64,000 nt of DNA from Planctomycetota bacterium (GTDB lineage Bacteria; Planctomycetota; UBA1135; UBA2386): contig JBEGVB010000024.1 of assembly GCA_041178545.1 (NCBI GenBank), positions 3,355-67,354 on the forward strand, written 5' to 3'. Of this stretch, positions 1 to 53,588 are shown piece by piece. Below the pieces are notes generated by a model. The model saw only the letters and a list, made by a program, of their open reading frames with translations. It did not search any database and had not been told where the DNA came from. The first letter of the stretch is position 1; every line of letters starts with the position of its first letter. The position numbers and the translations under genes were made by a program.

Positions 1-415
1 CCTCGGGCACGACCGACTTCCGGCTCCGCTCGCTGGCGATCCACTGGACCAGCATGCGCCCGGTGAACAGCAACTGGCCGAGGAAGCCCAGCGCCACCCA
101 GACGAAGCCCACGGGCGAACTCACGTTGAGGACGGACTCGAGGATCCCGCGCGACGACTGCTCGCGGTGCAGGCGCTCGCTGAAGGCCAAGGGGTCCAGC
201 TGGGCGACGGCCCCGTCGTGCGCAGTGACCTGGTAGCGCAGCTGTCCGTCCTCGCCCCGGTGCAACCACACGCGGTCCTCGGCACCGACGAGTTGGACCT
301 TGAGGTCGATGGCACCCTCGGGCCCTTGCACGGGTCGAAGCAGCGCAAAGGCAACCCACGCGAGCACGCCCAGCAACAGCAGGGCCTCGAGCGCAGGGAG
401 CCAGCGGCGGTTCAT
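1..415 (-). CDS. Lipid-A-disaccharide synthase N-terminal (LAB_N) domain membrane protein, 3' end runs off the window
   Basis: Manual translation from ATG at 415 gives ...VGFVWVALGFLGQLLFTGRMLVQWIASERSRKSVVPE, the LAB_N signature (GQxxFxxRxxVQWxxSE...SVVP). Not in the ORF track because it is truncated. Confidence 0.8.
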   Translation of the reverse strand, partial: MNRRWLPALEALLLLGVLAWVAFALLRPVQGPEGAIDLKVQLVGAEDRVWLHRGEDGQLRYQVTAHDGAVAQLDPLAFSERLHREQSSRGILESVLNVSSPVGFVWVALGFLGQLLFTGRMLVQWIASERSRKSVVPE

Positions 416-467
416 GGCCGAAGGAGTAGCCGCCCCGCGGGTGCGAGGGAAGCGCGGACGCCACGCG

Positions 468-1442: not shown

Positions 1443-1612
1443 GGGAGTGTTTTGGCATGCTTTCCACCGGTTGCCAACGGTCTGGTCATGGAAACTGCCG
1501 CAGCCCCAACTCTCGATGCCGGAAGGATCTGGAGCGTGGAAAGCTTGTGGAAAAAGGGGGCGACGGTCGGTCTAGTGGAAACGTCTTTCGGTCCGGAGCC
1601 AAGGCAACCTCC

Positions 1613-2653: not shown

Positions 2654-2945
2654 CCTTGACTCCAGCCCCGTTCCGCGACGAAGCGCACGGCCGGTAGCGC
2701 CCCTGCCAACGGCACCAGGCACGCGGTGCGCCAAGCCCGCAACGTGGCTTCGCGCGAGTCGCTGAGGATCGCGCCCACCCGTCGCGCTTGGTCCGGATCC
2801 TCGGGCTACCCTTGCGGGGGTTGGCAGCAGGGACCCCTCGGGCATGATCTCGCAAAGCCCGGATTCGCTCGATACGCTCCTCGCCCCTCTCGCCCCGCGG
2901 CAGGGCCCGCCCGCCCGCCGCACCCCTGGAACCCACCGACATCCG

Positions 2946-4907
2946 ATGCACCTGCGCCTCTACCGCGCCGCATTCCCGCTGCTTCCTGCCGTCCTCGGCC
3001 TGGTCGGCCAGAACGCCATGGCCCAGGACCCCGCCCAGCCCGCCGCGCCAACCCAACTGGGAGTGCCGGAGGGCGTGCCGGACTTCCTGAAGCCGGTGCC
3101 CGGGGGACAGGTGTGGCTCGGGCTCAGTGCCGAGAAGCTGCTGGAGGTTGCCTCGCAGGCAGTCAGTCCCGCCAATCCCGACCGCGCCGAGGCCAAGAAG
3201 CTGGAGCGCGCCCTGAAGTACTCCGCATCGGCACTGGGCCGGACCCGCGCAACCGTCGAGCCCTTCCTGCTCGGCAAGTGGCAGGTGACCAACAAGGAGT
3301 ACGAGAACTACATCAAGCTCACCAAGAGCCGCTTCCCGTTCCACTGGTGGCGTTTCGGCCGCAAGGACGACTACGAGGCGCGCATCGCGGACATCAACCG
3401 CGAGTTCCCGCAGGAGAAGGTGCTCGCCGCGGTCTACTACTGGGAGCGTCACTGGAAGGACCTGCCCTACGCCCTCAAGGACGAGACCGGCAAGCCCATC
3501 GACAACCTCCCTGTCGTCCAGGTGTCGTGGACCGACGCCGTCAAGTTCGCCGGCTGGCTCGGCATGCGCCTCCCCAACGAGGCCGAGTGGACCCGCGCCG
3601 CGCGCGGTGAGTCGGATGCCGCCTGGCTCTGGGGCACCAAGGCTGGGGGCGTCGACAAGTTCGACCTCAAGTCGCTGGATGCCGTCCGCATGGCCAACAT
3701 GTCGGACCAGAAGCTGAAGCCGCACAGCGACTTCCCCGCCACCAACGGCGCCTATGGCCACCACCACATGCTCGGCCAGGTGTGGGAGTACATGGCCGAG
3801 CGCGACTTCGTGCCGCTCAGCGGCTCCGCCGACTACAAGAAGGAGCTGGAGAAGCTGCAGAAGTCGAAGGGCGGCAAGGGTGTCGAGAACCCGCCCGTCT
3901 ACAAGGAAGGCGCCGTCGTCGTCAAAGGTGGTTCGTTCATGTCGGGCAACGACCCGATCCAGTTGCTCATCGACGCCCGCGTGCCGATGCAGACCAACGA
4001 GACCGTGGACACCGTGGGCTTCCGCCTCGCCAAGAGCCTGAAGCCCGGCGCCGACATGCTCTCGTCGCTGCTGAAGACGGACTACACGTCCCAGATGCTC
4101 AACCCGAGCCAGGTCCCGGACCTCGCCGCGCAGGTGGGCATCGAGCGGTACGAGATGAACAGCGAGGGCTTCCCCGCCAGGTACGAGGCCTTCTCGCTGG
4201 CCCCGCTGAACTGGGTCACCAACGGCAAGAACGCAGCGCTCGACAAGCTGGCCGACCAGAGTCGCAGCGCCCCAATCCCCGTCGCGACGCTGGCGCTCAC
4301 CATGAAGCTGGAGCAGCCCGCGCTCGAGCCCGGCATCTACACCCTCGCCTACCGCCACAAGGGCATGGGCAAGGAACTCGCCGAGGCGATCCGCACCGGC
4401 CACAAGGCCGTGCAGAACATCCTCAAGAAGAAGGAGAAGGGCGAGGAGCCGGACGAGAAGGACCTCGCCGGCGACTGGAAGGACATCATCACCCGTGCCG
4501 GCCTCACGCAGGCGGACCTGGAGCCCAAGGACGCCGTCGAGAAGCTCAAGTTCGTGCGGTTCGGCGGTGCCGAACTCGACACCGAGACCGGCCTCTACGT
4601 GTTCGTCAACAACGAGGGCAAGGTCGCCGCAACGCTGCCGGTGAAGCTGGAGAACCTGCCTGCTGCCAACGCCCTGCCGAGCCACCTCGACCTCAAGGTC
4701 ACCAAGACGGCCAAGGGTGAGGAGAAGGAGCACCTGATGGTGCGCTTCGGCACCCCCATCGAGGAGCGCAACGCGAAGCGGGTGCTGGACACCAAGCTGG
4801 ACCTGATCCTGGCAGAGAAGCCTTCAGGCAAGCCCTGGCGGATGCCGACAACTGCCCATGACATGGCCGCCCCGACGGGTGGCCAGAACAAGCAGAGCAG
4901 CCGCTGA
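2946..4907 (+). CDS. Secreted SUMF1/FGE-sulfatase-domain protein with long C-terminal extension
   Basis: Signal-peptide-like N-terminus; F.LGKWQVTNKEY, PVVQVSWTDA, RLPNEAEW, MLGQVWEY, KGGSF and GFRLA motifs. Confidence 0.75.
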   Translation: MHLRLYRAAFPLLPAVLGLVGQNAMAQDPAQPAAPTQLGVPEGVPDFLKPVPGGQVWLGLSAEKLLEVASQAVSPANPDRAEAKKLERALKYSASALGRTRATVEPFLLGKWQVTNKEYENYIKLTKSRFPFHWWRFGRKDDYEARIADINREFPQEKVLAAVYYWERHWKDLPYALKDETGKPIDNLPVVQVSWTDAVKFAGWLGMRLPNEAEWTRAARGESDAAWLWGTKAGGVDKFDLKSLDAVRMANMSDQKLKPHSDFPATNGAYGHHHMLGQVWEYMAERDFVPLSGSADYKKELEKLQKSKGGKGVENPPVYKEGAVVVKGGSFMSGNDPIQLLIDARVPMQTNETVDTVGFRLAKSLKPGADMLSSLLKTDYTSQMLNPSQVPDLAAQVGIERYEMNSEGFPARYEAFSLAPLNWVTNGKNAALDKLADQSRSAPIPVATLALTMKLEQPALEPGIYTLAYRHKGMGKELAEAIRTGHKAVQNILKKKEKGEEPDEKDLAGDWKDIITRAGLTQADLEPKDAVEKLKFVRFGGAELDTETGLYVFVNNEGKVAATLPVKLENLPAANALPSHLDLKVTKTAKGEEKEHLMVRFGTPIEERNAKRVLDTKLDLILAEKPSGKPWRMPTTAHDMAAPTGGQNKQSSR

Positions 4908-4908
4908 C

Positions 4909-5475
4909 GTGACCCATCCCATCGACCCGCAGGCCAAGGTGACGGTCAACGACCGCGCCAAGGCGTCCTTCTCCTACCAGGACTACAGCGCGAAGACGCC
5001 CATCCAGGGCGTCGAGATCGTGGAGCTGCGTCGCTTCAACGACGACGGCGGAGCGATCACCGAGCTGGGACGGCTGACGGCGGGGATGCACGGCCAGCTC
5101 GCGGGGTTCGAGTGCAAGCAGGTCAACTACTCCGAGGTCGAGCCCGGCGCGATCAAGGCGTACCACATGCACCACCGCCAGACGGACGTGTGGTACGTGC
5201 CGCCCTGCGACAAGCTGCTCCTCGTGCTGCACGACTGCCGCAAGGGTTCGCCCACGGAGGGTGCGACCATGCGGTTCGTACTGGGTGACGGCAAGGACCG
5301 TCTCGTGCGCATCCCCCCGGGCGTCGCCCACGGGACGCGCAACCTCGCCCAGGAACGCGGCCGCATCCTCTACATGGTCGACGTGCAGTTCTCGGTGAAG
5401 CCCGGCGAGTGCGACGAGGGTCGCCTGCCTTGGGACTTCCTCGGTGCCGAGGTCTGGGAGATGGTCCGCGGCTGA
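4909..5475 (+). CDS. dTDP-4-dehydrorhamnose 3,5-epimerase family (RmlC-like cupin)
   Basis: DDGGAITE, QVNYS, AYHMH, DCRKGSPT and IPPGVAHG motifs. GTG start 1 nt after the upstream stop. Confidence 0.8.
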   Translation: MTHPIDPQAKVTVNDRAKASFSYQDYSAKTPIQGVEIVELRRFNDDGGAITELGRLTAGMHGQLAGFECKQVNYSEVEPGAIKAYHMHHRQTDVWYVPPCDKLLLVLHDCRKGSPTEGATMRFVLGDGKDRLVRIPPGVAHGTRNLAQERGRILYMVDVQFSVKPGECDEGRLPWDFLGAEVWEMVRG

Positions 5476-5499
5476 GCCGCCGGTCCGTTCGACCCGCCG

Positions 5500-6327
5500 T
5501 CAGGCATCCGCCAACATCGCGTCGAGCGACCGACTCGCACGCCACTCGCCAGCCAGAGACACGTCGCGGGGTCGCGTGGCGTCCTCGCAGTCCATAGGCA
5601 CGAGGAGTTCTGCCGGCAGGCCGTGCACGGCGCAGAACCGCTGGCCGAGTTCCCAGCGCGAGAGGCGCTCGGGTCCCGGCAGGTGCTGCACCTCGGGCAC
5701 GAGCGGGTCTCCCTCCGCCAGCCGCGCTGCGATGCCCGCGATGGCCACTGCGGCATCGGCCGCGTGCAGCGGGGTGCGGTACTCGTTGGGGAACAGGTGC
5801 ACGGGTTTCCGCGCCATGAGCGCGGCCCGGATCATCCCGGTCGCGCCACGGAACGCCGGGTCGGGACCGAAGAGGAGCGGCAGCCGCACCACCTTGCCGC
5901 CCGCGGCTCGCACCCGTTCCTCGCCCTCGGCCTTGGTCATCCCGTACACCGAGAGCGGCGCAACCGGTGCCGCGGCACCGTACGGCGCAGCCCTGCCGTC
6001 GAAGACGAGGTCGGTGGAGACCATCAGGATCCTGCCGCCCATCGCCTCGGCAAGGGCGCCGGGCAGGACGGCGTTGACCTGACGTGCACGCTCGGGGTCG
6101 GCAGCGCACTCGCCCATGCGGCTCATGGCCGCGAGGTGAACGACCACGTCCGGCCCGGCAGCGACCAGCACCTCCCTCCTTGCCTCCGGCTGCGTGAGGT
6201 CGACGGCCACGTCGCCGCGACTCCTCCCGACCCCGACGACGCGGGCGCGCCGCCGCTGGAGGGCAGCGGTCACGAACGGGCCGAGGAAGCCCGTGGCGCC
6301 GGTCACGAGGGCACGGAAGGCTGGCAT
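5500..6327 (-). CDS. dTDP-4-dehydrorhamnose reductase family (RmlD-like SDR)
   Basis: VTGATGFLG Rossmann motif; VSTDLVFDG; YGMTK (YxxxK). Confidence 0.8.
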   Translation of the reverse strand: MPAFRALVTGATGFLGPFVTAALQRRRARVVGVGRSRGDVAVDLTQPEARREVLVAAGPDVVVHLAAMSRMGECAADPERARQVNAVLPGALAEAMGGRILMVSTDLVFDGRAAPYGAAAPVAPLSVYGMTKAEGEERVRAAGGKVVRLPLLFGPDPAFRGATGMIRAALMARKPVHLFPNEYRTPLHAADAAVAIAGIAARLAEGDPLVPEVQHLPGPERLSRWELGQRFCAVHGLPAELLVPMDCEDATRPRDVSLAGEWRASRSLDAMLADA

Positions 6328-6386
6328 CGCGCCCCTATGGTTGCGACAGTTCGCCGGGAACGAAAGCCCAGCGGTCCCAAACCACG

Positions 6387-7268
6387 ATGCATCGCCTCCT
6401 GATCCTCGCCAACCCGATCTCCGGGGGCGGCAAGGCACGCCTGCTCGCGCCTGCCTTGGCAACGGCGCTGCGCGCACGCGGCATCGAGTCCGAGGTGCAC
6501 CTCACCAGGTCCGCAGGGGACGCCGCAGCACGGGCTGCGAGTGCGGCCGCAGAGGGGTTCAGCGGACTGGTGGCGGTGGGCGGCGACGGGACCGTCAACG
6601 AGGTGCTGAACGGCATGGCGGACCCGTCCATGCCCCTCGCGGTCCTGCCCGTGGGCACGGCCAACGTGCTCGCACTCGAACTCGGCCTGCCCCGCGACCC
6701 GGAGGTGCTTGCGGACCTCGTCGCCTCGGGGTCCACGCGGCAACTGGCCATCGGACTCGCAGCGGGCCGCCGCTTCCTGCTCTTCTGCGGCATCGGTCTC
6801 GACGGTGCCGTGGTGCAGCGGTTGAGCCAGGTGCGGACCGGCACCCTCGGCAAGCACAAGTGGGCGGCCCCCATCCTGCACACGGTGCTGCACTGGCCCA
6901 AGTACAACCTCTCGGTCACGTTCGACGACGGCACGAGGCTCGAGGACGTGAGCACGGTGCTGGTCACCCGCGTGCGCAACTACGGCGGCATCGCGGCGAT
7001 GCCCCCCGGCATCGACCTCGGCGACGGGAAGCTCCACGTGCTGTGCTTCCGGCCGCGCTCGCGGCTCGCATGGGTGTGGCTGGGCCTCCTCGCCATCCTC
7101 CGCCTGCTGCGCCCCGGCCGCTGGCTGGACCACCGCACTGCGCGTTCGCTGACGGTCACGGGCCCTGCACCCTGCCAGGTCGATGGCGACCACGGTGGCA
7201 CGACCCCGCTCACGGTCGAACTCGCACCAGTGCTCGCAACGGTGTTCGCGCCGCAGCCGAGGGGCTGA
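6387..7268 (+). CDS. Diacylglycerol/lipid kinase family protein (DAGK catalytic domain)
   Basis: ANPISGGG, GGDGTVNEV, LPVGTANVLA and QVDGD motifs. Confidence 0.9.
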   Translation: MHRLLILANPISGGGKARLLAPALATALRARGIESEVHLTRSAGDAAARAASAAAEGFSGLVAVGGDGTVNEVLNGMADPSMPLAVLPVGTANVLALELGLPRDPEVLADLVASGSTRQLAIGLAAGRRFLLFCGIGLDGAVVQRLSQVRTGTLGKHKWAAPILHTVLHWPKYNLSVTFDDGTRLEDVSTVLVTRVRNYGGIAAMPPGIDLGDGKLHVLCFRPRSRLAWVWLGLLAILRLLRPGRWLDHRTARSLTVTGPAPCQVDGDHGGTTPLTVELAPVLATVFAPQPRG

Positions 7269-7271
7269 GCC

Positions 7272-9410
7272 TCAGGCCCCGAGTCCGCGCTGCAGGCGCT
7301 CGACCACCAGCCCCGCCACCCACGTCGACACGCGCTTGGTGCGCAGCGGCAGCTGGGTGAAGCACACGAGGGGCAGGGTCCACTGCAGCAGGGGCAACAG
7401 GTAGGCAGCCTCGCCGCCCGCGTCCCCCGCCTGACGGCGCGCCAGGCCGCGCAGCAGGGCTGCCATCGCAAGCCCCTTGTCGAGCATGGGATCGCCGCTC
7501 GGGCGGTCCGGCTCCCCCACCGCGAAGAAGTCCGCGTGGCCGTGCAGATGGCGGTGTGCGAGCAGCACGCGCAGCTCGTCCTCGTCCGACTCCATGCGCG
7601 GGTGCTGCAGGGTCAGCAACGGCTCGAGACGCGCGAAGTCGGAACAGACGTTGCGCTCGCGCGTCTCCGAGAAGTCGATCACGTAGAGGTTCTCGCGGTC
7701 GTCGACGAGCACGTTGTTCAGGTTGAGGTCGCCGTGCGTGATGGAGATGCGGCAGCGGGTGAGTTGGGCGCGCAGCCGCGGCCACTCGTGCCGGAGGAAC
7801 CACCACGGATTGGCGACGTCGCAGGCAAGCGGCCCACAGGGGATGCGCGGCGCATCGGGGTCGATCCCCAGCACGTCGACCGCAACCGACTCCATCCCGC
7901 GGAACAGCACGCGTGGGTCGTGCTCGTCGAACAGTGAGACCTCGCGCTCACGCCACTGGCCGTACCAAGGCTGCAGCACGGAGCCCGCGAGTTGCAGGTA
8001 GAGCCTGCGCAGGTCCGCGACCGGCTGCAGGGCATGCACGTCCGCGAGCGAGTGCAGCCGTGCGCCGGCACCGTTGATGCCCACGAAGTTGTAGCGCAAC
8101 CCAGCTGACTCGCCGCGGTTGGCGCGGCCCATGATCACCGTGCTGTTGTTGAGGATGAAGTTGCGGACGTACTCGTGGTACGCGCGCTCCTCCCGGTCGG
8201 TGAATGCGTGGGAACTGACCTTCAGCACCGTGGGGATGGTGGTGCGCCCCTCGTGGTCGTGGCTCGCCACGGCATATGTGGCGGCGCTGTAGCCGCCGGT
8301 GAGACGGGTCAGGCGGATCGAGCTGGAGCCGTGGTACAGGGTGCGCGCGATCACCTCGGCCTCCTCGCCGAGGTCCGCCGGGGCATCGACCCGCAGACGC
8401 GCTGCGGAACCGTCGGCCACCTGGTCCGCGCGCCAGACGAAGGCCGTGGCCGACCCCTTGCCCAGTGCCGTGCTCGCGTCCACGGCAACCAGGTCCTCTG
8501 CACCCTCGACAGCGGTGGCGAGTGCAGCCGGCGAACCGGGCAACACGGCTGTGGAACCCCACTCCAGTGCGGGTCCCGTCGCAACAACGGCCCCGCCGCC
8601 CGGCGCACACACGACAACGCGCGCCCGCCTGCGGTCCCCGACCGCAACACAACTGAAGATGCCGAGCCAACCGTCGCCAGCAGCCGCACGGCACGCGGCC
8701 AGCAAGCCATCCTCGTCCGTCAGTCCCTTGCTGCGCAGGACGAGCGTTGGCGCTCCCCGCAGTGCAACGGCCTCGTCGAGGTGCACGAAGGCTGCATGCG
8801 GCAGGGCGGCGAGCAGGTGGTCGCAGGACCCGTTGCCGAACTGCATGCCCACGAGGCTGCCCGTGGAGACGAACCGCATGGGTTGCGCAGCGGCCTGCTC
8901 GCGACTCGCTCCCGTGCCCCCGGCACCCGTCGCGAGACCGAGTTCGGCGAAGCTCGTGGGAGCAAGCGGGCCCGGCGCAAGCCGTTCCATCCGCCCAGCA
9001 CCCGGCTCACCGTGTGCAAGTTCGAAGGACGTTCCGCCGTGCTCGAAAGCAGCAGCACCGCCGGCCGAGGCTCGGTCCCCGCCCGCGGCGGCAACTGCAC
9101 TGGCGAGGTCGGCGGCCTGCGGCCAGAACGCACCCATCCCGGAGATCTCCAGCACGTCGCGCACCCCGGGGCGCAAGCCGGCAAGGGTCGTCGTCCGCCC
9201 AGCTGCGCGCTGCCGCTTCTCGTGGGCCAGCAGCACGCGCAGGCCCGCGCTGGACACGTAGTCGACACCACAGACGTCCCAGACCGTGGGCGCAGGGGCA
9301 TGGGACTCGAGCCACGAGCCGAGGACGCCAGCCGTGCTGCCGTCGATCCTGCCCCGGAGCACGAGGACAGGCACCGCGGTGCCACTGGCAAGGGCGAGTT
9401 CGAGTGCCAT
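7272..9410 (-). CDS. STAS (anti-anti-sigma) domain fused to a C-terminal aminoglycoside-phosphotransferase-like kinase domain
   Basis: N-terminus GRIDGST...DVCGVDYVSSAGLRVLL (STAS with conserved Ser). C-terminus LTGGYS, VLKV, HGDLNLNNVLVD, IDFSET. ATG at 9410; the upstream part of the tracked ORF is a shadow of the PKD gene. Confidence 0.75.
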   Translation of the reverse strand: MALELALASGTAVPVLVLRGRIDGSTAGVLGSWLESHAPAPTVWDVCGVDYVSSAGLRVLLAHEKRQRAAGRTTTLAGLRPGVRDVLEISGMGAFWPQAADLASAVAAAGGDRASAGGAAAFEHGGTSFELAHGEPGAGRMERLAPGPLAPTSFAELGLATGAGGTGASREQAAAQPMRFVSTGSLVGMQFGNGSCDHLLAALPHAAFVHLDEAVALRGAPTLVLRSKGLTDEDGLLAACRAAAGDGWLGIFSCVAVGDRRRARVVVCAPGGGAVVATGPALEWGSTAVLPGSPAALATAVEGAEDLVAVDASTALGKGSATAFVWRADQVADGSAARLRVDAPADLGEEAEVIARTLYHGSSSIRLTRLTGGYSAATYAVASHDHEGRTTIPTVLKVSSHAFTDREERAYHEYVRNFILNNSTVIMGRANRGESAGLRYNFVGINGAGARLHSLADVHALQPVADLRRLYLQLAGSVLQPWYGQWREREVSLFDEHDPRVLFRGMESVAVDVLGIDPDAPRIPCGPLACDVANPWWFLRHEWPRLRAQLTRCRISITHGDLNLNNVLVDDRENLYVIDFSETRERNVCSDFARLEPLLTLQHPRMESDEDELRVLLAHRHLHGHADFFAVGEPDRPSGDPMLDKGLAMAALLRGLARRQAGDAGGEAAYLLPLLQWTLPLVCFTQLPLRTKRVSTWVAGLVVERLQRGLGA

Positions 9411-39765: not shown

Positions 39766-40995
39766 TCAAGCTGCCGCGGCCTGTGGCTCCCGCACGAGTC
39801 GCCAGATCACGAGCCAGGAACCCAGCTGGCAGAGCGCAGCGAGCCACAGCACCGCGCCGAAACCGCCGTCGGACGCCGTCTCCGCCCCGCCGCGGTCGAG
39901 CAGCAGGCCCGCACCGAGTGCACACAGACCGATGCCCAGCTGCTGGCTGAAGGCACGCAGCCCCATGAGGCTCGCCAGCTGCGACTGCGGGACCTGGCCG
40001 CTGGTGAGAGCCTGCAGCGGGCCCGTGCGTGCGCTCGCGCCCACGGCAACGAGCGCGCCCAGCACCAGCAGCGCTGCACCGTGGCGGACGGCAGCGAGGG
40101 CCACGAATCCCGCGACCAGGACCACTGAACTCGCCAGCACGAACCTGCGCTTGCCGATGCGGTCCGACAGCGAGCCGAACCCGTATGCGCCGAAGACGGA
40201 GGCAAGCCCGAGGCCGACCCAGAGCCACGATTGCTGGTCGCGCGGCAGCAGGCCCGAACCGTGGAGCCACGTGCCCGCGAGCTGCGCAGTGGTGAAGAAC
40301 GGACCGACGTGCAGCATCACGGCGAGCATGGCGGCGAGCACGGTGCGGTTGGTGAGCAGGCGCAGCGGCGCGACACCGGCAACGGCACCGCGGTCGCGCG
40401 GCACGGCGCGCCAGGCAAGGCCCAGGGCGAGCACGGCAACCGCACACTGCACGACGAAGATCCCCTGCCACGAACCCGATGCCGCAAGCGCGATCGCGAG
40501 CGGCAGCCCGAGCGGCACCGCGAGGAAGAGCCCGGCCGTGAATGCACCCATCGCCGCACCGCGGCGCTCGTAGGGCACCAGTTCGGCCACCATGGCAGAG
40601 GCACAGGCATAGGCGACGCCGACGGCGGCACCCGACAGGGCACGCAACGCGACCAGGATGCCAAAGCTGTCGGCAACGGTGTGCAGCAGCGAACCGACGG
40701 CAAACACCGCGAGGCCCATGAGCAACGGCGCCCGCCTGCCGTGGCGGTCCGCGTGGGGTCCGACCCAGAGCGCACCGAGCGCAGAGGCGGCTGCGGCGGC
40801 AGCGAGCAGCAGCCCGCGCCGCCATCCGTCGAGGCCGAACTCCGTGTCGACGTGGTCCAGCAGCGGACCCATCACGTTGGTGTTGAGGTTGAGCGCAAAC
40901 GCAGCGAGCGTCAAAGCCACGATGGCAGCGCGCTCACGGGCCCGCGGCAGCGGCTCGCGGGCGGCGGCTTCGTGTGCATCGGGTCCTTGTGCCAA
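39766..40995 (-). CDS. MFS transporter
   Basis: About 12 hydrophobic segments; GPHADRHGRR and GSLSDRIGKR motif A repeats. Confidence 0.9.
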   Translation of the reverse strand: MAQGPDAHEAAAREPLPRARERAAIVALTLAAFALNLNTNVMGPLLDHVDTEFGLDGWRRGLLLAAAAAASALGALWVGPHADRHGRRAPLLMGLAVFAVGSLLHTVADSFGILVALRALSGAAVGVAYACASAMVAELVPYERRGAAMGAFTAGLFLAVPLGLPLAIALAASGSWQGIFVVQCAVAVLALGLAWRAVPRDRGAVAGVAPLRLLTNRTVLAAMLAVMLHVGPFFTTAQLAGTWLHGSGLLPRDQQSWLWVGLGLASVFGAYGFGSLSDRIGKRRFVLASSVVLVAGFVALAAVRHGAALLVLGALVAVGASARTGPLQALTSGQVPQSQLASLMGLRAFSQQLGIGLCALGAGLLLDRGGAETASDGGFGAVLWLAALCQLGSWLVIWRLVREPQAAAA

Positions 40996-41100
40996 GCGGC
41001 GGCATCATGGCCGCTTGCCGGTGCGAATCCACCTGCGTGGTGGTTCGCAGCCGAAGTAGAGTCCTCGCACCGTGCACCACGCATTCGCACTGGAGGTTCG

Positions 41101-42441
41101 TTGAAGATCGCCATCCTCGGCGGCGGCATCTCGGGCACCACCCTTGCCCGGCTGCTGGCCGCAGACGGCCACGCCGTGGTCGTGCTCGAGAAGGCCTCGC
41201 GCCCGGGCGGCCTGTGCCGCAGCCGGAAGTACGGTGAGTTCACCTTCGACGAGGCCGGCGGTCACATCGTCTTCAGCAAGCGCAAGGACGTGCTGCAGTG
41301 GCAGATCGACCGCTGCGGCGGCGAGCAGGGCACCGTGCGCACGGTGCGCAACACCAAGATCCGCTGGCACGACCGCTGGGTGCCCTACCCGTTCGAGAAC
41401 GGCGTCGGCCACCTGACCAAGGAAGCCATCGTCGACTGCATGCGCGGCTACGTCGAGGCGCACGTGCAGCGGCGGCTGGGCGTGACGTGCCCGTCGAACT
41501 TCGGCGACTGGATCCAGTGGCGCATGGGCGACGGCTTCGCGCGCCACTTCATGGTCCCGTACAACGAGAAGATCTGGAAGTGCGACCTGCGCACCATGAG
41601 CTCGGGCTGGGTCGCGGGCCGCGTGCCCGAGGCGCCCATCGAGGACATCCTCAAGGCCGCTGTCGGCATCGACACCGAGGGTTACGGGCACCAGTCGACG
41701 TTCTGGTTCCCGCGCAAGGGTGGCTTCGAGGCCATGGTGCACGGCACCGTGCAGGGCGGCGGCTTCGAGCTGCGCTGCAACACGGCCGTCGAGAACGTAC
41801 GCAAGGACGGCTCGCGCTTCCTCGTCAACGGCGAGGCCTTCGACCTCGTGGTCAACACCGTGCCGCTGCCGCAGGTGACGCCCGCGTTCGAGGACGTGCC
41901 CGAGGCGGTGCGCGCCGACATCCGCGCATTGCGGCCCATCTCGCTCGTCAACGTGATGATCGGCGTCAAGGTGGACGAGCCGTTGCCGCCGCTGTCGTGG
42001 ATCTACCTGCCGTTCCCGGACCAGGGCCCCACGAACCGCGTCACCTACTTCAGCAACTACTCGCCCGACAACGCCCCCACCGGCCACGGCTCCTTCCTCG
42101 CCGAGGTCACCCACCGGGGCGAGCTGCAGCCCGACCGCGGATGGATGGACGGCGTGCTGCAGGGCCTCGAGCGGGCGGGCATCCTTCGCCGCGACCAGGT
42201 CGTGCTGTCCGAGTGGTGCAACAACGAGTACGCGTACATCCACCAGGACCTCGAGTTCGAGGCGCGCATCGGCCGCGTGCGCAACTGGTTCGACAACTCC
42301 GGGTACGTCACCTTCGGCCGCTTCGGCCGGTACGAGTACCACAACAGCGACCAGTGCATCGCGCGCGCCATGGAGGTGCACCAGCACGTGCGCGAGATCG
42401 CGCGCAGTGGCGCGCCTGCCCGCCCGAACTTCAGGGACTGA
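41101..42441 (+). CDS. FAD-dependent oxidoreductase, UDP-galactopyranose mutase / protoporphyrinogen-oxidase-like
   Basis: TTG start with GGAGG RBS; ILGGGISG, PGGLCRS, GGHIVFS, PYNEKIW, GRFGRYEYHNSDQ. Confidence 0.75.
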   Translation: MKIAILGGGISGTTLARLLAADGHAVVVLEKASRPGGLCRSRKYGEFTFDEAGGHIVFSKRKDVLQWQIDRCGGEQGTVRTVRNTKIRWHDRWVPYPFENGVGHLTKEAIVDCMRGYVEAHVQRRLGVTCPSNFGDWIQWRMGDGFARHFMVPYNEKIWKCDLRTMSSGWVAGRVPEAPIEDILKAAVGIDTEGYGHQSTFWFPRKGGFEAMVHGTVQGGGFELRCNTAVENVRKDGSRFLVNGEAFDLVVNTVPLPQVTPAFEDVPEAVRADIRALRPISLVNVMIGVKVDEPLPPLSWIYLPFPDQGPTNRVTYFSNYSPDNAPTGHGSFLAEVTHRGELQPDRGWMDGVLQGLERAGILRRDQVVLSEWCNNEYAYIHQDLEFEARIGRVRNWFDNSGYVTFGRFGRYEYHNSDQCIARAMEVHQHVREIARSGAPARPNFRD

Positions 42442-43676: not shown

Positions 43677-44534
43677 ATGCGCAGCGCCTGCCTTGCCCTG
43701 TTGTCCGCGCTCGTTGCTGCGTGCGGCACGCACCGCGGGGCGCCGACCGCCGCAGACCCGGAGCTCCTCGTGGTCGTGAGCGCCAACATCCGCTACGGCA
43801 CAGCACGCGACGGTGCCGACAGCTGGCCCGCCCGCCGGGACGCGCTGGCAGACCTCCTCTTGGCCCAGCAGCCGACAGTCCTCGGCGTGCAGGAGGCCCT
43901 CGACTTCCAGGTGGCGTTCCTCGAGGAGCGGCTGCCCGGACACCAGCGGCTCGGCGGCGGCCGCGATGCGGACCGCGGCGGCGAGCACGCGTGCCTGTTC
44001 GTCGACCGCGCACGCCTCGAGGTGCTCGACCACGGCGACTTCTGGCTCAGCACCACGCCCGGGGTGGCGGGCTCGGTCGGTTGGGACGCCGCGCTGCCGC
44101 GCATCTGCACGTGGGCGCAGCTGCGCGACCGCGCCAGCGGACGCTCGTTCTGGGTGTGGAACACCCACTTCGACCACCGCGGCCCGGAAGCGCGCAGACA
44201 GTCGGCGCTGCTGCTGGCCACCAGGATGGCGACCACGGCTGGCCCCCACCTCGTCCTCGGCGACTTCAATGCCGGCGAGTCCTCGCCGCCGCTGCAGGCC
44301 CTGCGTGCCGCGGGCCTGCGGGACACCTACCGCGAGTTGCAGCCCGAGGGCCCTGCAGGGACCTTCCACGCGTTCCGCGGCGGGCTCGGCGGCGAGAAGA
44401 TCGACGCCGTGCTGGCCTGCAAGGGGTTCGTCACGGTGCAGGCCGGCATCCTCTCGGACCCGATGGAGACCGGCCGGTACGTGAGTGACCACCACCCGGT
44501 GGTGGCGGCGGTTCGGCTCGCAAGAGACCCGTGA
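43677..44534 (+). CDS. Endonuclease/exonuclease/phosphatase family lipoprotein
   Basis: LVAAC lipobox; SANIRY, GVQEA, NTHFDH, LGDFN, KID, SDHHPV. Confidence 0.9.
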   Translation: MRSACLALLSALVAACGTHRGAPTAADPELLVVVSANIRYGTARDGADSWPARRDALADLLLAQQPTVLGVQEALDFQVAFLEERLPGHQRLGGGRDADRGGEHACLFVDRARLEVLDHGDFWLSTTPGVAGSVGWDAALPRICTWAQLRDRASGRSFWVWNTHFDHRGPEARRQSALLLATRMATTAGPHLVLGDFNAGESSPPLQALRAAGLRDTYRELQPEGPAGTFHAFRGGLGGEKIDAVLACKGFVTVQAGILSDPMETGRYVSDHHPVVAAVRLARDP

Positions 44535-44813
44535 CCGGGCGCGGGGCCTGCCCACTCGTGCGTACGGTGGACCGGCTGAAACCCCTGTGCCGCAAGGCAC
44601 TAGGTCGACCCGTGAACGAGGATCCCGCCACGGACCCGACCGGAAACACCCACTGCGGTGGGGTCGCAGTGCTGCCCTGACCGCGCCGTCCCCGTCGGTC
44701 GGTTACCGCCCACGGGAAGCCTGCTCGCACGGATTTGCAGGTTCGCACGGAACCTGTCACCACCCCCCGTGCGTCCTTGGGTTGTCGCGGAGCCATGCAC
44801 TCCGCACAGCTCT

Positions 44814-44978
44814 TTCCTGTTCCCGAGACAAACACTGTCGGCGGTCTCCGGACGCCGAGAAGGCACCGCGAATCAGAGGGGTCTGTTCCAGGGTGCATTG
44901 CCCGGGTGCCGGTCGCGCAGTCAGCGAGCTGCGTGACGTCTCGCACCGCCGACAGCCCATGCGTCTCGGGAACAGGGA
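44814..44978 (+). ncRNA. Candidate structured RNA: ~165-nt rod with side hairpin (6S-like architecture, unassigned)
   Basis: Nested helices 44816-44829/44963-44976 (14 bp perfect), 44835-44845/44945-44955 (11 bp perfect), 44862-44867/44905-44910, and hairpin 44912-44937. G-U pairs favour the + strand. Confidence 0.45.
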
Positions 44979-45011
44979 TCCTATCCCGCTGCGGACAGCA
45001 CCGCAGCGCCA

Positions 45012-45046
45012 CGGAGCACACCCTCACCGGTGTGCTCCGGTCTTTT
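45012..45046 (+). terminator. Terminator-like hairpin upstream of the DGQHR gene
   Basis: CGGAGCACACC-ctcacc-GGTGTGCTCCG 11-bp perfect stem followed by gTCTTTT. Confidence 0.45.
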
Positions 45047-45139
45047 CGGGAGGCGTTCTCCGGGCCCAGGTGGCCCTGCTTGCATCCCTGCATGCGTGGC
45101 CGAAACTGCAGGTCCCAACCCTGCCAAGGAGGTCTGCCC

Positions 45140-46279
45140 GTGTTCGCCCAGCGCATGCGCCAGAAGGAGTCGGAGTTCTACTTCGTCAGCTACCCGGCCG
45201 AGGACCTGCTGCGAAAGGTCCGCTTCGTGACCCGCTTCTACGGGGAACGCGGCCAGACGATCGGCGGTGAGGAGCCGAAGCCGAAGGGCAAGGCCTCCGA
45301 GCCCGACGACGTCGAGCGCTACGTGCAAGCCATCGAGAAGAACAGCAAGTCGTTCCAGCGCGACCTGAACCGGCGAAAGATCCGCCAGATCAAGGACTTC
45401 TACCGCAACGAGTCGCGCCAGCCGGTGATCCCCGGCGCGGTGCTGCTGTTCACGCCGGAGAAGCTCGAGTTCCAGCCGCTCAAGGGGATGGAGCGCGCCG
45501 GCAACCTGGTCGAACCGCGCAGCGACTTCCTCATCATCGACGGGCAGCACCGGCTGGCCGGCCTGCACTTCTACCTGCAGGAGAAGGACGCCGACCGTCG
45601 CATCGAGGTGCCGGTGGTGGTCTTCGACGGCAAGACCAGCGACTTCGCGACGGAGATGTTCGTCGTGATCAACAGCACCCACACGCGCATCAATCGCTCG
45701 CACCTCATCGACCTCTACGAGCGCATCGAGTGGGGCACCGACCCGGAGAAGAAGTACGCGGCCTCACTGGTGCGCGCGTGCTACGAGGAGGACGACAGCC
45801 CCCTGCAGTACCACATCAACATGCTGGGCGGCCGCAGCCACCAGGAGATGTGGATCAACCAGGCGCAGATCTTCGGCGAGTTGCTGCGCCTGATCTCGCG
45901 CAAGGACGCACAGCACCGCTTCAAGGACGGTCGCGGCTGGAGCAAGGACCGCGGTTACGGCCTGGTCCGCGACGTGCTCAAGGCGTTGCGCACGACCTTC
46001 GGCACGGCATGGGGAGACAACAAGAGCCACATGGTGACGCGCGACGTCACCATCGAGGCGATGCTGCGACTTTGCGGCGACGTGGCGGCGAAGGTCGACC
46101 CGACGGTCGCGCCCGGGCCCGAGCTCGCAAAGATGCTCGAGAGCCGCTTCCGACCGGTGGCGGAACTGGTGCACGAGTTCCGGCGCGAGGGCTTCTACGA
46201 GCGATTCCCGGCCCGCGGCCAGATGGAGCGCATCGAGATGATCCGCAAGCGGCTGGCGCGACAGGCCAGGCTGGAGTGA
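45140..46279 (+). CDS. DGQHR domain protein (DndB/ParB-like superfamily)
   Basis: AAGGAGG RBS before GTG 45140; FQRDLN, IIDGQHRLAG and FVVIN motifs. Confidence 0.9.
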   Translation: MFAQRMRQKESEFYFVSYPAEDLLRKVRFVTRFYGERGQTIGGEEPKPKGKASEPDDVERYVQAIEKNSKSFQRDLNRRKIRQIKDFYRNESRQPVIPGAVLLFTPEKLEFQPLKGMERAGNLVEPRSDFLIIDGQHRLAGLHFYLQEKDADRRIEVPVVVFDGKTSDFATEMFVVINSTHTRINRSHLIDLYERIEWGTDPEKKYAASLVRACYEEDDSPLQYHINMLGGRSHQEMWINQAQIFGELLRLISRKDAQHRFKDGRGWSKDRGYGLVRDVLKALRTTFGTAWGDNKSHMVTRDVTIEAMLRLCGDVAAKVDPTVAPGPELAKMLESRFRPVAELVHEFRREGFYERFPARGQMERIEMIRKRLARQARLE

Positions 46280-46303: not shown

Positions 46304-47209
46304 TCACTTGCCAGTGGTTGCCGGCTCGACCTTCTTGACCGGCTCCACGGGTTCTGGCCTCGGCGTGTCGCGGAAGAACTCGACGATGAGCGCACCCCAG
46401 GTCGGCAGGAAGCGGTGGCCGCCCTCGTGCACGAGGGTGACCACGTCGGCACCCTTGGAGGAACGCTGGATCGTGCACCCCTCGTGGGCCTTCCAGGCCT
46501 CGGGGGCGCTGCACTCACCGCGCTTCACGAGTTCGGCGACGGTGAGCGCCTGCCACGCGTACTTCACCAGCGGGTCGGTGCGCCCCGAGAGGTGGAACAC
46601 CGGACGCGGCACCAGGGTTGCGCCACGCAGCGACTTGTTGAAGGCTGCGCCCGAGGGCGCGAACGAGGCAAAGACGTCCCCGCGCGCGGCCCACAGCAGG
46701 TAGGTGAAGCCGCCGCCGTTGCTGTGGCCGGTCGCGTGGACACGCCGAGGGTCGACGCGGTACTGCTGCTTCAGGTCGGCCAGCACGGCATCGAAGAATG
46801 CGAGGTCCCGGTCGCCCTGGTCCCCCATTTCCTTCTGCCAACCGGTGCGCTTGCCCTCGGGGTCGGTGATCTGGCCCGGGGTGTTGAGCCCCTGCGGGTA
46901 CACCACCAGGGCCTCGGGCCAGTGCTCGTGGATGCGGAAGGTGCGCGCGGCGTTGCGCATGCTGCCGCCATGCCCGTGGAAGACGAACACGAGGGGCACG
47001 GGTGCGTCCTTTGCCTTGGGCGGGACGTGCACGAGCGCCATGCGCTCGACGTCCCCCACCTTCCACGTGCGCTGTTCCTCCAGCGCGTCCTTGGCATCAT
47101 CCTCCGACTCGGTCGCAGGAGCGGTGGACGGTGCCACCGCCGGTTCGGAAACGGGCGGGTCCTGGGGCACCAGGACCGCGAGGAAGCCGGCAAGGAGCAG
47201 GGCTGTCAT
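46304..47209 (-). CDS. Secreted alpha/beta hydrolase (PHB depolymerase/LpqC-like esterase)
   Basis: FVFHGHGG, VVYPQG, TGHSNGG nucleophile motif, GRTDPLV, HEGGH. Confidence 0.85.
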   Translation of the reverse strand: MTALLLAGFLAVLVPQDPPVSEPAVAPSTAPATESEDDAKDALEEQRTWKVGDVERMALVHVPPKAKDAPVPLVFVFHGHGGSMRNAARTFRIHEHWPEALVVYPQGLNTPGQITDPEGKRTGWQKEMGDQGDRDLAFFDAVLADLKQQYRVDPRRVHATGHSNGGGFTYLLWAARGDVFASFAPSGAAFNKSLRGATLVPRPVFHLSGRTDPLVKYAWQALTVAELVKRGECSAPEAWKAHEGCTIQRSSKGADVVTLVHEGGHRFLPTWGALIVEFFRDTPRPEPVEPVKKVEPATTGK

Positions 47210-47254
47210 GGCACCAAGGTAACGCACCGGGCCCCGTGCCCCCACCGCAGCCGG

Positions 47255-49357
47255 TCACTGCGCGAGACGCGACAGGTCGGCAACCTGGTTCATCAGGGCG
47301 TGGAGCTGCTGCAGCAGGGCCAGCCGGTTGGTGCGCAGCGCAGCATCATCGACGTTGACCATCACCGCGTCGAAGAACGCGTCCACCGGCGCCTTGAGGG
47401 CGGCAAGGGCCACCAGTCCGGCCTGGAAGTCGCCCTTGGCGAACAGCGGCATCGCCCGTGCGACGGCACCCTCCAGCGCCTTGTGCAGCGCCTGCTCGGC
47501 GGGCTCGCGCAGCAGGGCTGTGTCGGTGCGCGCACCCGCAGGCAGCTCGCTCTTGCGCAGGATGTTGCCGATGCGCTTGTTGGCCTCGGCCAGCGGGACG
47601 GCCTCGGCCAGACCGGCAAAGGCACGCACGGCTGCCAGCCTGCGCGGCACCTCGGCAAGACGCTGGGGTCGCAGGCTCACCACGGAGTCGACCTCCTTGG
47701 CACTGAATCCCTGCTCCCGCGCAAGGAACGCGAGCCGGTCGAACACGAAGTCCGTGAGGGCCGCGCGCGGGTCGGTGATGCGGTCGCCGAACGCAGGAAC
47801 GGCCATGCCCACGAGCGCGTCGAGGGCCAGCGGCAGCTCGCGCTCCGTGACCATGCGGATGACCCCCAGCGCGTGGCGACGAAGGGCAAAAGGGTCCTTG
47901 TCCCCAGTGGGCACCTGGCCGATGCCGAACAATCCCACGAGGGTCTCGACCTTGTCGGCGAGCGCCACGGCGATGCCCGCCTGGTTGCGGGGCAGCGCGT
48001 CCCCGGAGAACCGCGGGCGGTAGTGGTCCTCGACCGCCTGCGCGACCTCCTCGGCCTCGCGGTCGTTGCGCGCGTAGTACCCACCCATGACGCCCTGCAG
48101 CTCGGGGAACTCGCCCACCATGTCGGTGAGCAGGTCGGCCTTCGCCAGCAGTGCAGCGCGGTCTGCACTGGCTGCCAGCGCGTCACCGCCCAGCGCCTTG
48201 CCGATGGCACGAGCGATGGTGCGCACGCGCTCGACGCGCTCGCCCTGGGTGCCGAGCTTGTTGTGGTAGACGACCTTTGCGAGGCCGGGCACCCGCGACT
48301 CGAGCGACTTCTTCCGGTCCTGCTCGAAGAAGAACCGGGCGTCGGCGAGGCGCGGCCGCACCACGCGTTCGTTGCCCCCGACGACGGCGCTCACGTCCGC
48401 AGGACGGATGTTGCTCACCAGCAGGAACCGGTTGCTGAGCCTCCCCTTCGCGTCGAGCAGCGGGAAGTACTTCTGGTTCTGCTTCATCGTGAGGATGAGG
48501 CACTCCTGCGGCACGGCGAGGAACTCCTCCTCGAACGTGCACGACAGCACGTTGGGGTTCTCGACCAACGAGGTCACCTCGTCCAACAGGTCCTCGTCCT
48601 GCACCGGGGACAACCCAGCAGGAGCGCGCTCGGCCAGCTGCCGCACGATCTCGGCGCGGCGCGCGGCAAACGAGGTCACCACGCCGCCCTCGTCCAGCAG
48701 CTGCGCCTCGTAGGAGTCGGCATCCCGCACCTCGACCACCGCGTGCTTCGACTCGAAGCGGTGGCCGCGCGTGGTGCGGCCGGACACGAGGCCAAGCCCC
48801 GTGAGCGGGACCACTGCGCTCCCGTGCAGCGCGACGATGCCGTGGGCCGGACGGACGAACTTCACCGAGGACCAGCCGTCGGCCAACTGGTAGGTCATCA
48901 CCTTGGGGATCGGCAGCTTGGCGAGCGCCTCGTCGAAGGCCGCCTGCAATGCGTTCCCGAGGCTCGCACCGCTCACGGTGACGTCGAGGTACAGCGTCTC
49001 GTTCTTGCCGTCCATCGCGCGCACGGTCCGCGCGAGGGCGGACTCGTCGAGCCCCATCGAGGCGAGCTTCTTGAGCAGGACCGGCGTCGCCTTGCCGTCG
49101 GCGTCGAGCCCGACCTTCACGGGCACCAGCTTCTGGCGCTCCTCACGGTCGGCTGCGCGGGCGGCCACGGAGCCGATGGACACGCCGAGGCGCCGCGGGG
49201 TGCCGTGGGCACGCACGGTCGCGTCGGCAGGCGCGAGCCCCTGGGCACGCAGGCTCGCTGCAATGGAGTCCGCGAACGCGGCACTGAGCCTTGCGAGTGC
49301 CTTGGGCGGCAACTCCTCGACGAACAACTCGACCAGCAGGGTGGCAGTGGCGCTCAC
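47255..49357 (-). CDS. glyS: Glycine--tRNA ligase beta subunit
   Basis: [55 protein letters not shown] overlap with glyQ. Confidence 0.96.
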
Positions 49358-50286
49358 GCGGCACCACCCTTCTTCGCGTCGGCCTCGAGCCGTGCCAGCA
49401 CCTCCGCCGACCACGCCTTGGGCGCCATGGGGAAGCCGAGACGTGCGCGGCTGTCGACGTAGCTTGCGGCTACGGCGCGCGCGAGGTTGCGGATGCGGCC
49501 GATGTACGCCGCACGCTCGGTCACGCTGATGGCGCCGCGGGCGTCCAGCAGGTTGAAGGTGTGCGCAGCCTTGAGCAGCTGCTCGTACGCGGGCAGCGCC
49601 AGTTTCTGTTCCATCAGCAGCTTGCTCTGCTTCTCGTGCGCGGCAAACGCCTGCAGCAGGAACTCGACGTCGCTGTGCTCGAAGTTGTAGGCGCTCTGCT
49701 CGACCTCGTTCTGGTGGAACACGTCGCCGTACTTCACGCCCTCGGCAAACGTCAGGTCGAACACGTTCTCGACTCCCTGCAGGTACATGGCCAGGCGCTC
49801 GAGTCCGTAGGTGATCTCACCGGTGATCGGCTTGCAGTCGATGCCGCCCACCTGCTGGAAGTAGGTGAACTGCGTCACCTCCATGCCGTTGAGCCACACC
49901 TCCCAGCCGAGGCCCCAGCAGCCGAGGGTCGGGTTCTCCCAGTCGTCCTCGACGAAGCGCACGTCGTTGCGCTTCAGGTCGAAACCCACCGCCTCCAGCG
50001 AGCCGAGGTAGAGCTCGAGGATGTTGGCGGGCGCGGGTTTCAGTACCACCTGGTACTGGTAGTAGTGCTGCAGTCGGTTCGGGTTCTGGCCGTAGCGGCC
50101 GTCCTTGGGCCGCCGGCTCGGCTGCACGTACGCGGCCTTCCACGGCTCCGGGCCGAGCGCGCGCAGGAACGTGCCGGTGTGGCTGGTGCCAGCGCCCACC
50201 TCCATGTCGTAGGGCTGGAGCAGGGTGCAACCCTGCCGGTCCCAGTATTCCTGCAGACGGAGAATCAGTTGCTGGAAGGTGAGCAT
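49354..50286 (-). CDS. glyQ: Glycine--tRNA ligase alpha subunit
   Basis: [57 protein letters not shown]. Confidence 0.97.
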
Positions 50287-53207: not shown

Positions 53208-53396
53208 GTCCTCAACTTAGCCCACCGGGGAAGGGCGGGGACAGGCGGGCCACCCCCGCTTCCCGTCGACCCATCGACCGGAAATCCGAGGTTCCAGCCG
53301 GGCCACCCTTGATCGCCGCTGGGCCATGTGCTGCAAAGGTGCCATGGCAGGGGCTCTGGTGCCCCGCCGCACCCACAACCAAGGATCGAGAACAAC

Positions 53397-53588
53397 ATGA
53401 GCCAGAACTTCGACCGCCTGGTCCAGGCCATCGAGGCCATCCGCGAGGACGTGGCCAAGGCTGACGGTGGCAACAAGGCCGCCAAGACGCGCGTGCGCAA
53501 GGCGATGCAGGACGTGAAGAACATCGCCCAGGACGTCCGCAAGGAAATGCTGGGCGCCGGCGAGGCCGGCGAGGGCGGCGACAGCTGA
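53397..53588 (+). CDS. Histone H1-like nucleoid protein (Hc1 family N-terminal domain)
   Basis: D..KA..GNKAA.TRVRKAMQDVK..AQ.VRKE signature; 63 aa. Confidence 0.8.
   Translation: MSQNFDRLVQAIEAIREDVAKADGGNKAAKTRVRKAMQDVKNIAQDVRKEMLGAGEAGEGGDS

Follow-up and report, generated by a model that had tools for sequence, protein, structure and literature searches.

The DNA analysed here, referred to as the window, is a stretch of 64,000 nt from a Planctomycetota genome (G000; 3.9 Mb, 92.3% complete), and coordinates are given as positions in it. A gap of 605 nt (44535-45139) is found between a gene of the endonuclease/exonuclease/phosphatase (EEP) family (43677-44534, + strand, PF03372) and a gene for a DGQHR-domain protein of DpdB/DndB-like type (45140-46279, + strand), whose GTG start at 45140 follows an AAGGAGG ribosome-binding site (RBS). 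A sequence-only reading of the window had described this gap as a structured region of ~600 nt and proposed that it is either an undescribed structured RNA or a leader or attenuator that controls or partners the DGQHR protein. Our analysis shows that the gap very likely contains a stand-alone gene for a small RNA of about 266 nt with a complex fold (about 44781-45046, + strand), which is confined to one Planctomycetota family and is undescribed in Rfam 15.

Folding energies locate the RNA within the gap. Compared with shuffled sequences, the whole 605 nt give z = -4.0 on the + strand and z = -5.9 on the - strand (20 shuffles per strand). After a three-way cut, the segment 44781-45046 reaches z = -8.44 and none of 200 shuffles folds as well. 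The spacer 3' of the EEP gene (44535-44748), which lies outside the RNA and is assigned to no strand, has z = +0.46, and 134 of 200 shuffles fold at least as well; for the segment 45047-45160, z is -0.70 and 50 of 200 do so. The folding signal of the gap is confined to 44781-45046, where the z-score is significant, and the flanks show none. Thus the ~600-nt structured region stands for about 266 nt, and the remainder consists of spacer and of the DGQHR gene's own leader.

All helices listed in the sequence-only reading are indeed present in the DNA at the positions given there, as checked by reading the sequence and, for several, by an inverted-repeat scan. The real and conserved ones are GCGGAG/CTCCGC (P1 below), the rod at 44814-44978, CGCTGCGG/CCGCAGCG and the stem of 11 bp in the terminator. 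The four hairpins further upstream, GTGCC-GCAA-GGCAC, CCGACCG/CGGTCGG, CACTGCG/CGCAGTG and CAGGTTC/GAACCTG, do not exceed what chance would give. Conservation beyond the genus is seen for none of them, and CCGACCG/CGGTCGG and CACTGCG/CGCAGTG are lost even in the same-genus genome. They are a chance product of 70% G+C sequence, since the signal sits in 44781-45046 alone after the cut. CAGGTTC/GAACCTG overlaps the -35 box of the promoter described below and is that box plus a chance complement. A block of 60 nt in the spacer (44561-44620), which holds the GTGCC-GCAA-GGCAC hairpin, is 93% identical in the same-genus genome while its surroundings have diverged. This block is single copy and found in no other genus, and it may be the terminator of the EEP gene or a genus-specific element.

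The predicted RNA, on the + strand throughout, begins with a 5' hairpin, which is followed by a long closing rod. Two stacked three-way junctions cap this rod, and a 3' hairpin and then an intrinsic terminator complete the RNA. The 5' hairpin P1 (44781-44810) has the stem GCGGAG (44787-92)/CTCCGC (44800-05) in the minimum-free-energy (MFE) structure. Its loop CCAUGC (44793-98) is nearly invariant, with alignment positions C22, A23, T24, G25 and C26 invariant or nearly so. RNAalifold assigns nine pairs to P1, each changed on both sides in 1-17 sequences. The closing rod and the core occupy 44814-44978 and contain perfect inverted repeats of 14 nt and 11 nt. P2 (44814-29/44963-78) has 12 pairs with 1-23 double changes each. 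An internal loop, AAACA/CCCAUGC (44956-62), separates it from P3 (44835-45/44945-55), where 5 of 6 pairs show double changes. Between P3 and P4 a conserved bulge of 10 nt, CUCCGGACGC (44846-55), is found on the 5' side. P4 (44856-60/44939-43) also carries double changes in 5 of 6 pairs and opens the three-way junction with P8 and P5.

The second three-way junction, formed by P5, P6 and P7 (44862-44910), is the most conserved domain. It is opened by P5 (GGCACC/GGUGCC, 44862-67/44905-10), which covaries. P6 (44870-88) is formed by GAA-U-CAGA GGGG UCUG-UUC and contains AGAGGGGUCU, which is invariant in 45/45 sequences of alignment A3, divergent members included; the same is true of AGAGGGGTCT. 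Covariation in P6 is observed at the helix base only, as CUGUC/GACAG in the relative G021. P7 (44891-44903) is a covarying hairpin with a GNRA-type loop in most members and UUCG instead in locus L059. P8 (44912-44937) carries a conserved loop, UCAGCGAG (44921-28); all nine pairs show double changes, and 92% of cells pair. The 3' hairpin CGCUGCGG/CCGCAGCG with the loop ACAGCA (44987-45008) is predicted in the MFE structure, and at this place relatives also form a hairpin, whose loop is often CCCAUGC. The CAUGC motif is present in at least two copies in 39/59 members. The P1 loop always holds one of them; the other lies in the loop of a 3' hairpin or of the terminator, and in the window it lies in the internal loop of the rod (44958-62). 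Pairing of the P8 loop (CGAG) with the bulge (CUCG) into a pseudoknot was assessed by eye and dropped, as sequences with UCCG in the bulge have no compensating change.

Sequence comparison argues for conservation of this secondary structure. In the alignment of 59 distinct sequences (A1), the RNAalifold consensus has 47 pairs, 37 of which show changes on both sides. For the core alignment (A2) a structure of 37 pairs was written by hand and scored against partners slid by 1-3 columns and against 500 column shuffles. In this structure 92.1% of cells pair, compared with 32.9-38.6% for the slid partners. Double changes are observed in 25 of the 37 pairs (154 cells) versus 8-19 pairs (22-66 cells), and none of the 500 column shuffles matches the core structure in any of five measures. 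P8, P3, P4, P1 and P2 vary freely yet stay paired. The compensatory changes go beyond the controls, as expected of an RNA with a conserved secondary structure. The + strand is most likely the RNA strand, since G-U cells are in excess over A-C cells (203 vs 33). The core alignment also holds indels of 1 and 2 nt.

Signals for independent transcription are found on both sides of the fold. A candidate promoter of the extracytoplasmic function (ECF) sigma type is formed by GGAAC (44749-53), an unconserved spacer of 18 nt and CGTC (44772-75). GGAAC-N18-CGTC, with a spacer of exactly 18, is found by script in 57/60 distinct relatives and by eye in a 58th (L039); one relative has GAAAC-N17-CGTC and the truncated locus L007 has none. 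Two conserved boxes at a fixed distance with a variable spacer make a promoter signature. ECF-class promoters carry AAC in their -35 element and CGT(C) in their -10 element (PMC5758882), and the two boxes match that class as a motif. A sigma-70 consensus scan found no site. At the other end, the terminator scan finds an intrinsic terminator at 45012-45046, with an 11-bp stem (45012-22/45029-39) followed by GUCUUUU. In 28/59 relatives, at a constant distance (+132 to +172), there is a hairpin with 6 bp or more and, behind it, 9 nt that include 4 or more T; about 14 further relatives have a strong hairpin followed by a weaker tail, CTCTGTACG. From these motifs we infer a start near 44781 and an extent of about 44781-45046, or ~266 nt. 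A promoter and a terminator of its own at conserved distances are, at the level of motifs, those of a stand-alone bacterial small RNA (sRNA) gene. The promoter motif was also searched for a possible ECF regulon. The 15 non-coding sites, some of which precede a di-haem cytochrome c peroxidase gene or an XRE-type gene, contain none at a sigma factor, and this candidate regulon was too weak to be used.

The RNA is found once per genome and in a conserved place. By DNA search of 60 relatives, a core of ~100 nt (44849-44944) is matched at 74-93% identity, always once per genome. Of the same-family genomes 18/36 have a match, and of the genomes from nine further families in the order 0/24. An exact copy of the 20-mer 44868-44887 is present in 57 contigs of public genomes, and nearly all of these carry the title of a Planctomycetota metagenome-assembled genome (MAG); many of these contigs are the same loci as those of the family genomes, and no cultured member of the family is among the public records that match. 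The covariance model R1, which spans 129 positions of the core, has exactly one match each in 70/91 family genomes, and the only 2 of 151 genomes sampled across the phylum that match are both in this family. Beside the syntenic gene in R1-negative genomes, the central domain is still recognized at 29.9 (G033), 20.1 (G021) and 14.2 (G034) bits. The model of the central domain alone (R2) matches 36/42 sampled family genomes versus 3/108 genomes in other families of the order. Of these three outside matches, one is strong and lies at the end of a short contig in a 66%-complete genome, and two have E ~0.005. The RNA family appears to be restricted to one mostly freshwater, so far uncultured family of Planctomycetota. 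One contig (L035) of a MAG titled Luminiphilus sp., a gammaproteobacterium, contains the planctomycete RNA between neighbours of the flavoprotein and PTPS kinds described below, and this contig is probably mis-binned. A short contig of G279, from another family, with a 68-bit R2 match is a similar case.

The genomic surroundings are largely shared among relatives. The upstream neighbour on the same strand is an orthologue of window 40231-42441, an amine-oxidase-like flavoprotein gene, in 55/60 distinct loci. The downstream neighbour is a convergent gene of the 6-pyruvoyl-tetrahydropterin-synthase/QueD family (PTPS) in 43/60. In the genus of the window, the flavoprotein gene is separated from the RNA by a TPR gene and the EEP gene. 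Identity to the same-genus genome is at least 95% between promoter and terminator, and from ~45050 onward the two sequences are unrelated. In relatives, the ~500-700 nt between the RNA terminator and the PTPS gene (e.g. L009:1740-2375) contain no open reading frame (ORF) that passes a filter on G+C at the third codon position and show little conservation across genera.

Public sequencing runs indicate that the RNA is made in large amounts. Twenty runs contain the stretch or part of it, namely 14 DNA runs (freshwater, river and drinking-water metagenomes) and 6 river metatranscriptomes. In the latter, 0.18-0.41 of the sampled words are found, which is about the share of the RNA in the 605 nt. 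Four RNA runs were compared with 44200-45500, with depth given as one mean per assembled contig. In run X15 a contig on the RNA (44808-44965) has a depth of 3,210 and a flank contig (44660-44810) has 2. In run X17 the depths are 8,367 on the RNA (44906-44965), 97.5 for a contig at 44936-45039 and 2.3 on the flank (45061-45272). Run X16 has 43 on the RNA (44926-44969) and 2.7-3.6 on the flanks. In 3 of 4 runs, core depth is therefore 43-8,367 and flank depth 2-4, for contigs that carry neither strand nor ends. A 1,000-fold step between adjacent stretches does not fit DNA contamination. There is good, though not final, evidence for a very abundant and stable RNA in river metatranscriptomes.

Comparison with known families gives no identity for this RNA. 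Rfam 15 at the gathering score has no match in the whole window. With E up to 10, the region 44300-45400 has six noise matches (E 0.86-9.4), none of them on the core, and 18 related loci have none with E up to 0.5; thus the RNA is not in Rfam 15. A literature search at abstract level found no described abundant structured RNA from planctomycetes or freshwater. The RNAs of the signal recognition particle (SRP, 72 bits) and RNase P (261 bits) and the tmRNA (162 bits) are found on other contigs of the same genome. The model of 6S RNA, RF00013, finds nothing in this genome at default thresholds and hence nothing at the RNA locus. A full-length RF00013 match below the gathering score (27.6 bits, E 0.001) is observed on contig C175 at ~1680-1867 of the - strand (L100:231-418). 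That locus is 91% identical to a same-genus RF00013 match, is homologous to the matches in G001, G007 and G008, and is probably the genome's divergent 6S RNA. An identity of the new RNA as 6S, SRP, RNase P or tmRNA was rejected, as each of these is located elsewhere in the genome. Family-wide conservation, strong covariation, the lack of an Rfam match and the very high depth in RNA libraries together support the undescribed structured RNA that had been proposed from the sequence alone.

The gap is non-coding. Codon periodicity is absent from it (GC by codon position is flat) and strong in both flanking genes. Six ORFs overlapping the gap have no Pfam match, and scans of the gap for tRNA, tmRNA and tandem repeats find none. 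The crude ORF list has two further large gaps, at 38.6-39.8 kb and at 49.4-50.3 kb, but their periodicity shows both to be coding, which makes plausible the earlier description of 44535-45139 as the longest gene-free stretch of the window. An ORF in frame with the DGQHR gene is open back through the RNA gene (44735-46279; 514 aa instead of 379), and automatic annotation could wrongly extend the DGQHR protein through it. Downstream of the DGQHR gene, an ORF of 1,015 aa (46415-49462, + strand) is a shadow frame, and the real genes lie on the minus strand, a hydrolase gene (46304-47245) and glyS (47255-49414). Further away, 53328-53588 encodes an 86-aa histone H1-like Hc1 protein (PF07432, 67.9 bits), a chlamydial-type nucleoid protein in a planctomycete.

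The position of the RNA in this genome, on the same strand as the DGQHR gene and with its terminator ending ~95 nt before the DGQHR start, together with invariant, aptamer-like junction nucleotides, could suggest a cis leader, attenuator or riboswitch of that gene, or a dedicated RNA partner of its protein. The gene product itself scores 124.9 bits with TIGR03187 (cut-off 58.85), matches PF14072 (DndB) and has a weak DpdB/DndB likeness (PADLOC DpdB, 54 bits). It is solitary here, as had been noticed before, with the convergent hydrolase gene and glyS as its downstream neighbours. DGQHR orthologues of 71-91% identity are present in 45/90 other family genomes, and the DpdB/DndB-like gene is not a sporadic defence-island gene; within the family its contexts differ, and no Dnd or Dpd partners are found beside the window's copy. 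However, DGQHR is encoded near the RNA in 0/75 related loci within the flanks examined, where the convergent PTPS gene lies downstream in the majority of distinct loci given above. The two are on different contigs in 38/38 family genomes that have both (cross-tabulated by hand). In genus g12 the RNA is present in 14/15 genomes and DGQHR in 0/15, and G019, G031 and others have DGQHR without an R1 match. The same-genus genome keeps the RNA and loses similarity directly 3' of the terminator. Upstream of five DGQHR orthologues in other contexts, a check that the sequence-only reading had suggested, the alignment with the window covers the last ~65 nt only (TTGCA-N16-nAnACT and RBS). Since only this part is common, the gene seems to bring its own leader, which in the window would be the promoter-like stretch 45080-45139 (+ strand; TTGCAT 45080-85, N16, GAAACT 45102-07, RBS AAGGAGG 45127-33). 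In RNA libraries the RNA also exceeds the DGQHR leader or gene more than 1,000x in depth. Its adjacency to DGQHR is unique to this genome and makes it a neighbour, not a partner; control of DGQHR by the RNA is highly improbable and largely refuted. A DNA-level element, such as a miniature inverted-repeat transposable element (MITE), an insertion sequence remnant or a recombination site, or a small protein gene instead of an RNA gene has a negligible probability. The perfect 14-nt and 11-nt inverted repeats flanking ~100 nt and the ORF running in frame into DGQHR would fit such an element or gene. Against it, the stretch is no multicopy repeat, with one match in its own genome and one per genome in 70/70 positives, and it is syntenic in 55/60 loci. 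G-U pairs are tolerated on one strand alone, RNA libraries show very high depth, and neither the flat codon periodicity, the 1- and 2-nt indels nor the six ORFs without a Pfam match fit a protein.

If the locus encodes an RNA, its mode of action has to be weighed among several possibilities. MicA, RybB and MicL are enterobacterial sRNAs that depend on an ECF sigma factor (sigma-E); they are short or processed and act by seeds with Hfq. A base-pairing sRNA of this kind would agree with the ECF-type promoter, the stand-alone gene with terminator and several conserved loops and bulges, and the unpaired CGGACGC, UCAGCGAG, CCAUGC and CUUUCC would then be mRNA seeds. We regard it as unlikely, because an elaborate covarying fold with an invariant helix is atypical of seed-type sRNAs and no Hfq is found in the genome. 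No other genomic site complements the invariant 23-mer with up to 3 mismatches, although short seeds were not systematically searched. None of 16 GGAAAGAG sites precedes a plausible start codon, and the MFE structure places most of GCUCUUUCC in pairs at the base of P1 and of P2. An anti-Shine-Dalgarno role of CUCUUUCC was considered and rejected, with 0/16 complementary sites at a start codon and the motif mostly paired. A ligand-sensing RNA or a ribozyme acting alone, with a fold built for chemistry, would explain the two stacked three-way junctions with their invariant nucleotides, and the GNRA-type P7 loop and the conserved 10-nt bulge could serve as loop and receptor. Such a role would be quite improbable, as the RNA precedes no conserved gene that it could regulate, Rfam yields neither a ribozyme nor a riboswitch match, and UUCG replaces the GNRA loop in L059. 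Still less probable is a 6S or Ms1 analogue that binds RNA polymerase and sequesters the holoenzyme or core. The abundance, a size of ~160-270 nt, the 5' and 3' parts paired into a long rod and the silence of RF00013 at default thresholds speak for it; but the rod carries two three-way junctions and not a central bubble, the genome has its separate RF00013 match on C175, and seven RNA-carrying relatives hold a full-length sub-threshold RF00013 match and the RNA at different places. We also consider it rather unlikely that the RNA represents a new functional class, a stress-induced, ECF-driven and extremely abundant RNA whose junctions form a catalytic or ligand core, or which self-assembles into RNA-only or ribonucleoprotein (RNP) particles through its CCAUGC loops, the CAUG core of which is self-complementary. 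If so, uncultured freshwater planctomycetes would have in it a lineage-specific housekeeping machine and not an ordinary regulator.

Our best guess is a stress-induced, protein-binding RNA with a complex fold. An ECF-type sigma factor would drive its transcription, and the RNA would accumulate under an envelope or stress signal; stress induction is likely in view of an ECF-type promoter combined with a terminator, as in MicA, RybB and MicL. The mature RNA would form a stable rod with two stacked three-way junctions as its cap. It would act in trans by binding a protein, and a role as protein decoy or RNP scaffold is the likeliest of those considered, although we hold this part only tentatively. 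Protein binding is suggested by the AGAGGGGUCU helix-loop, which is invariant while the other helices covary, by the CCAUGC loop motif, which occurs twice in most members, and by the lack of an extended antisense target in the genome. The P6 helix-loop is kept letter for letter while others drift, which points to sequence-specific recognition of this helix, and the duplicated CCAUGC loops can be argued to form two equivalent binding sites. The modelled fold, with its rod, two three-way junctions, GNRA-type loop and conserved bulge, would give a compact tertiary structure and not a seed-type antisense RNA.

Several observations weigh against the RNA gene and this proposal. R1 has no match in 21/91 family genomes, though at least G021, G033 and G034 hold divergent copies. 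The covariation controls are uncorrected for phylogeny, and the structure was derived from the same sequences. The promoter is a motif match only; GGAAC/CGTC is not enriched in the genome (54 matches at spacer 18 vs 29-179 at other spacers), and no autoregulated ECF sigma gene with the motif is found in this incomplete genome. In the RNA libraries the evidence consists of assembled contigs instead of reads, and it is without strand and without ends. The contig ends coincide with strain-variant sites relative to the same-genus genome (44807, 44905), and a reading of the RNA ends from the contig ends (44808, 44906, 44965) was rejected for this reason. The X15 contig carries the same-genus allele at 44846, and part of the signal therefore derives from close relatives. 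Run X18 shows the flanks (2.5-2.8) and no contig on the core, though such a gap in contig cover is no proof of anything. Of candidate protein partners, TROVE/Ro60 (PF05731), CsrA (PF02599) and Hfq (PF17209) are not found in the 92.3%-complete genome, where absence is not proof.

To our knowledge, almost no small RNAs have been characterised in Planctomycetota. A strong fold, a clean promoter motif and a depth more than 1,000x that of the neighbours usually mark RNAs with central cellular roles. The RNA described here is a well-defined new target for work on structure and function. Its sequence and covariance model provide a marker for the lineage in metatranscriptomes, and it may open a first way into an ECF-sigma regulon of this lineage.

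A comparison with known systems shows partial likeness to several of them. Like 6S RNA (RF00013), the new RNA is abundant, similar in size, single copy and broadly kept in its lineage, and a long rod arises from pairing between its 5' and 3' parts. Unlike 6S RNA, it has no single-stranded central bubble but two stacked three-way junctions and an invariant hairpin; RF00013 does not match at its locus, and a separate 6S-like locus is present in the same genome. With MicA, RybB and MicL it shares a stand-alone gene, an ECF-type two-box promoter and an intrinsic terminator. It differs from them in its covarying multi-junction fold of 266 nt; no homology is observed and no Hfq is found in the genome. 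Y RNA and YrlA, which act with Ro60 (Rsr), also combine a terminal stem formed from both ends with a multi-helix module and bind protein, as is proposed for the new RNA. In contrast to them, no TROVE/Ro60 gene is found in this genome, ARAGORN finds no tRNA-like module, and the sole match to RF01053 is noise outside the RNA (E 9.4).

Riboswitch and attenuator leaders resemble the new RNA in having junctions with invariant nucleotides followed by a terminator hairpin, whereas the new RNA has no conserved downstream gene and the next gene is convergent in 43/60 loci. The raiA motif RNA, OLE, ROOL and GOLLD are orphan large structured bacterial non-coding RNAs (see bioRxiv 10.1101/2024.12.08.627333). 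The new RNA shares with this group its restriction to a lineage, a complex fold backed by covariation, high expression and a function that is unknown. It matches none of their Rfam models, however, and is set apart from them by its occurrence in another phylum, its smaller size and its defined ECF-type promoter.

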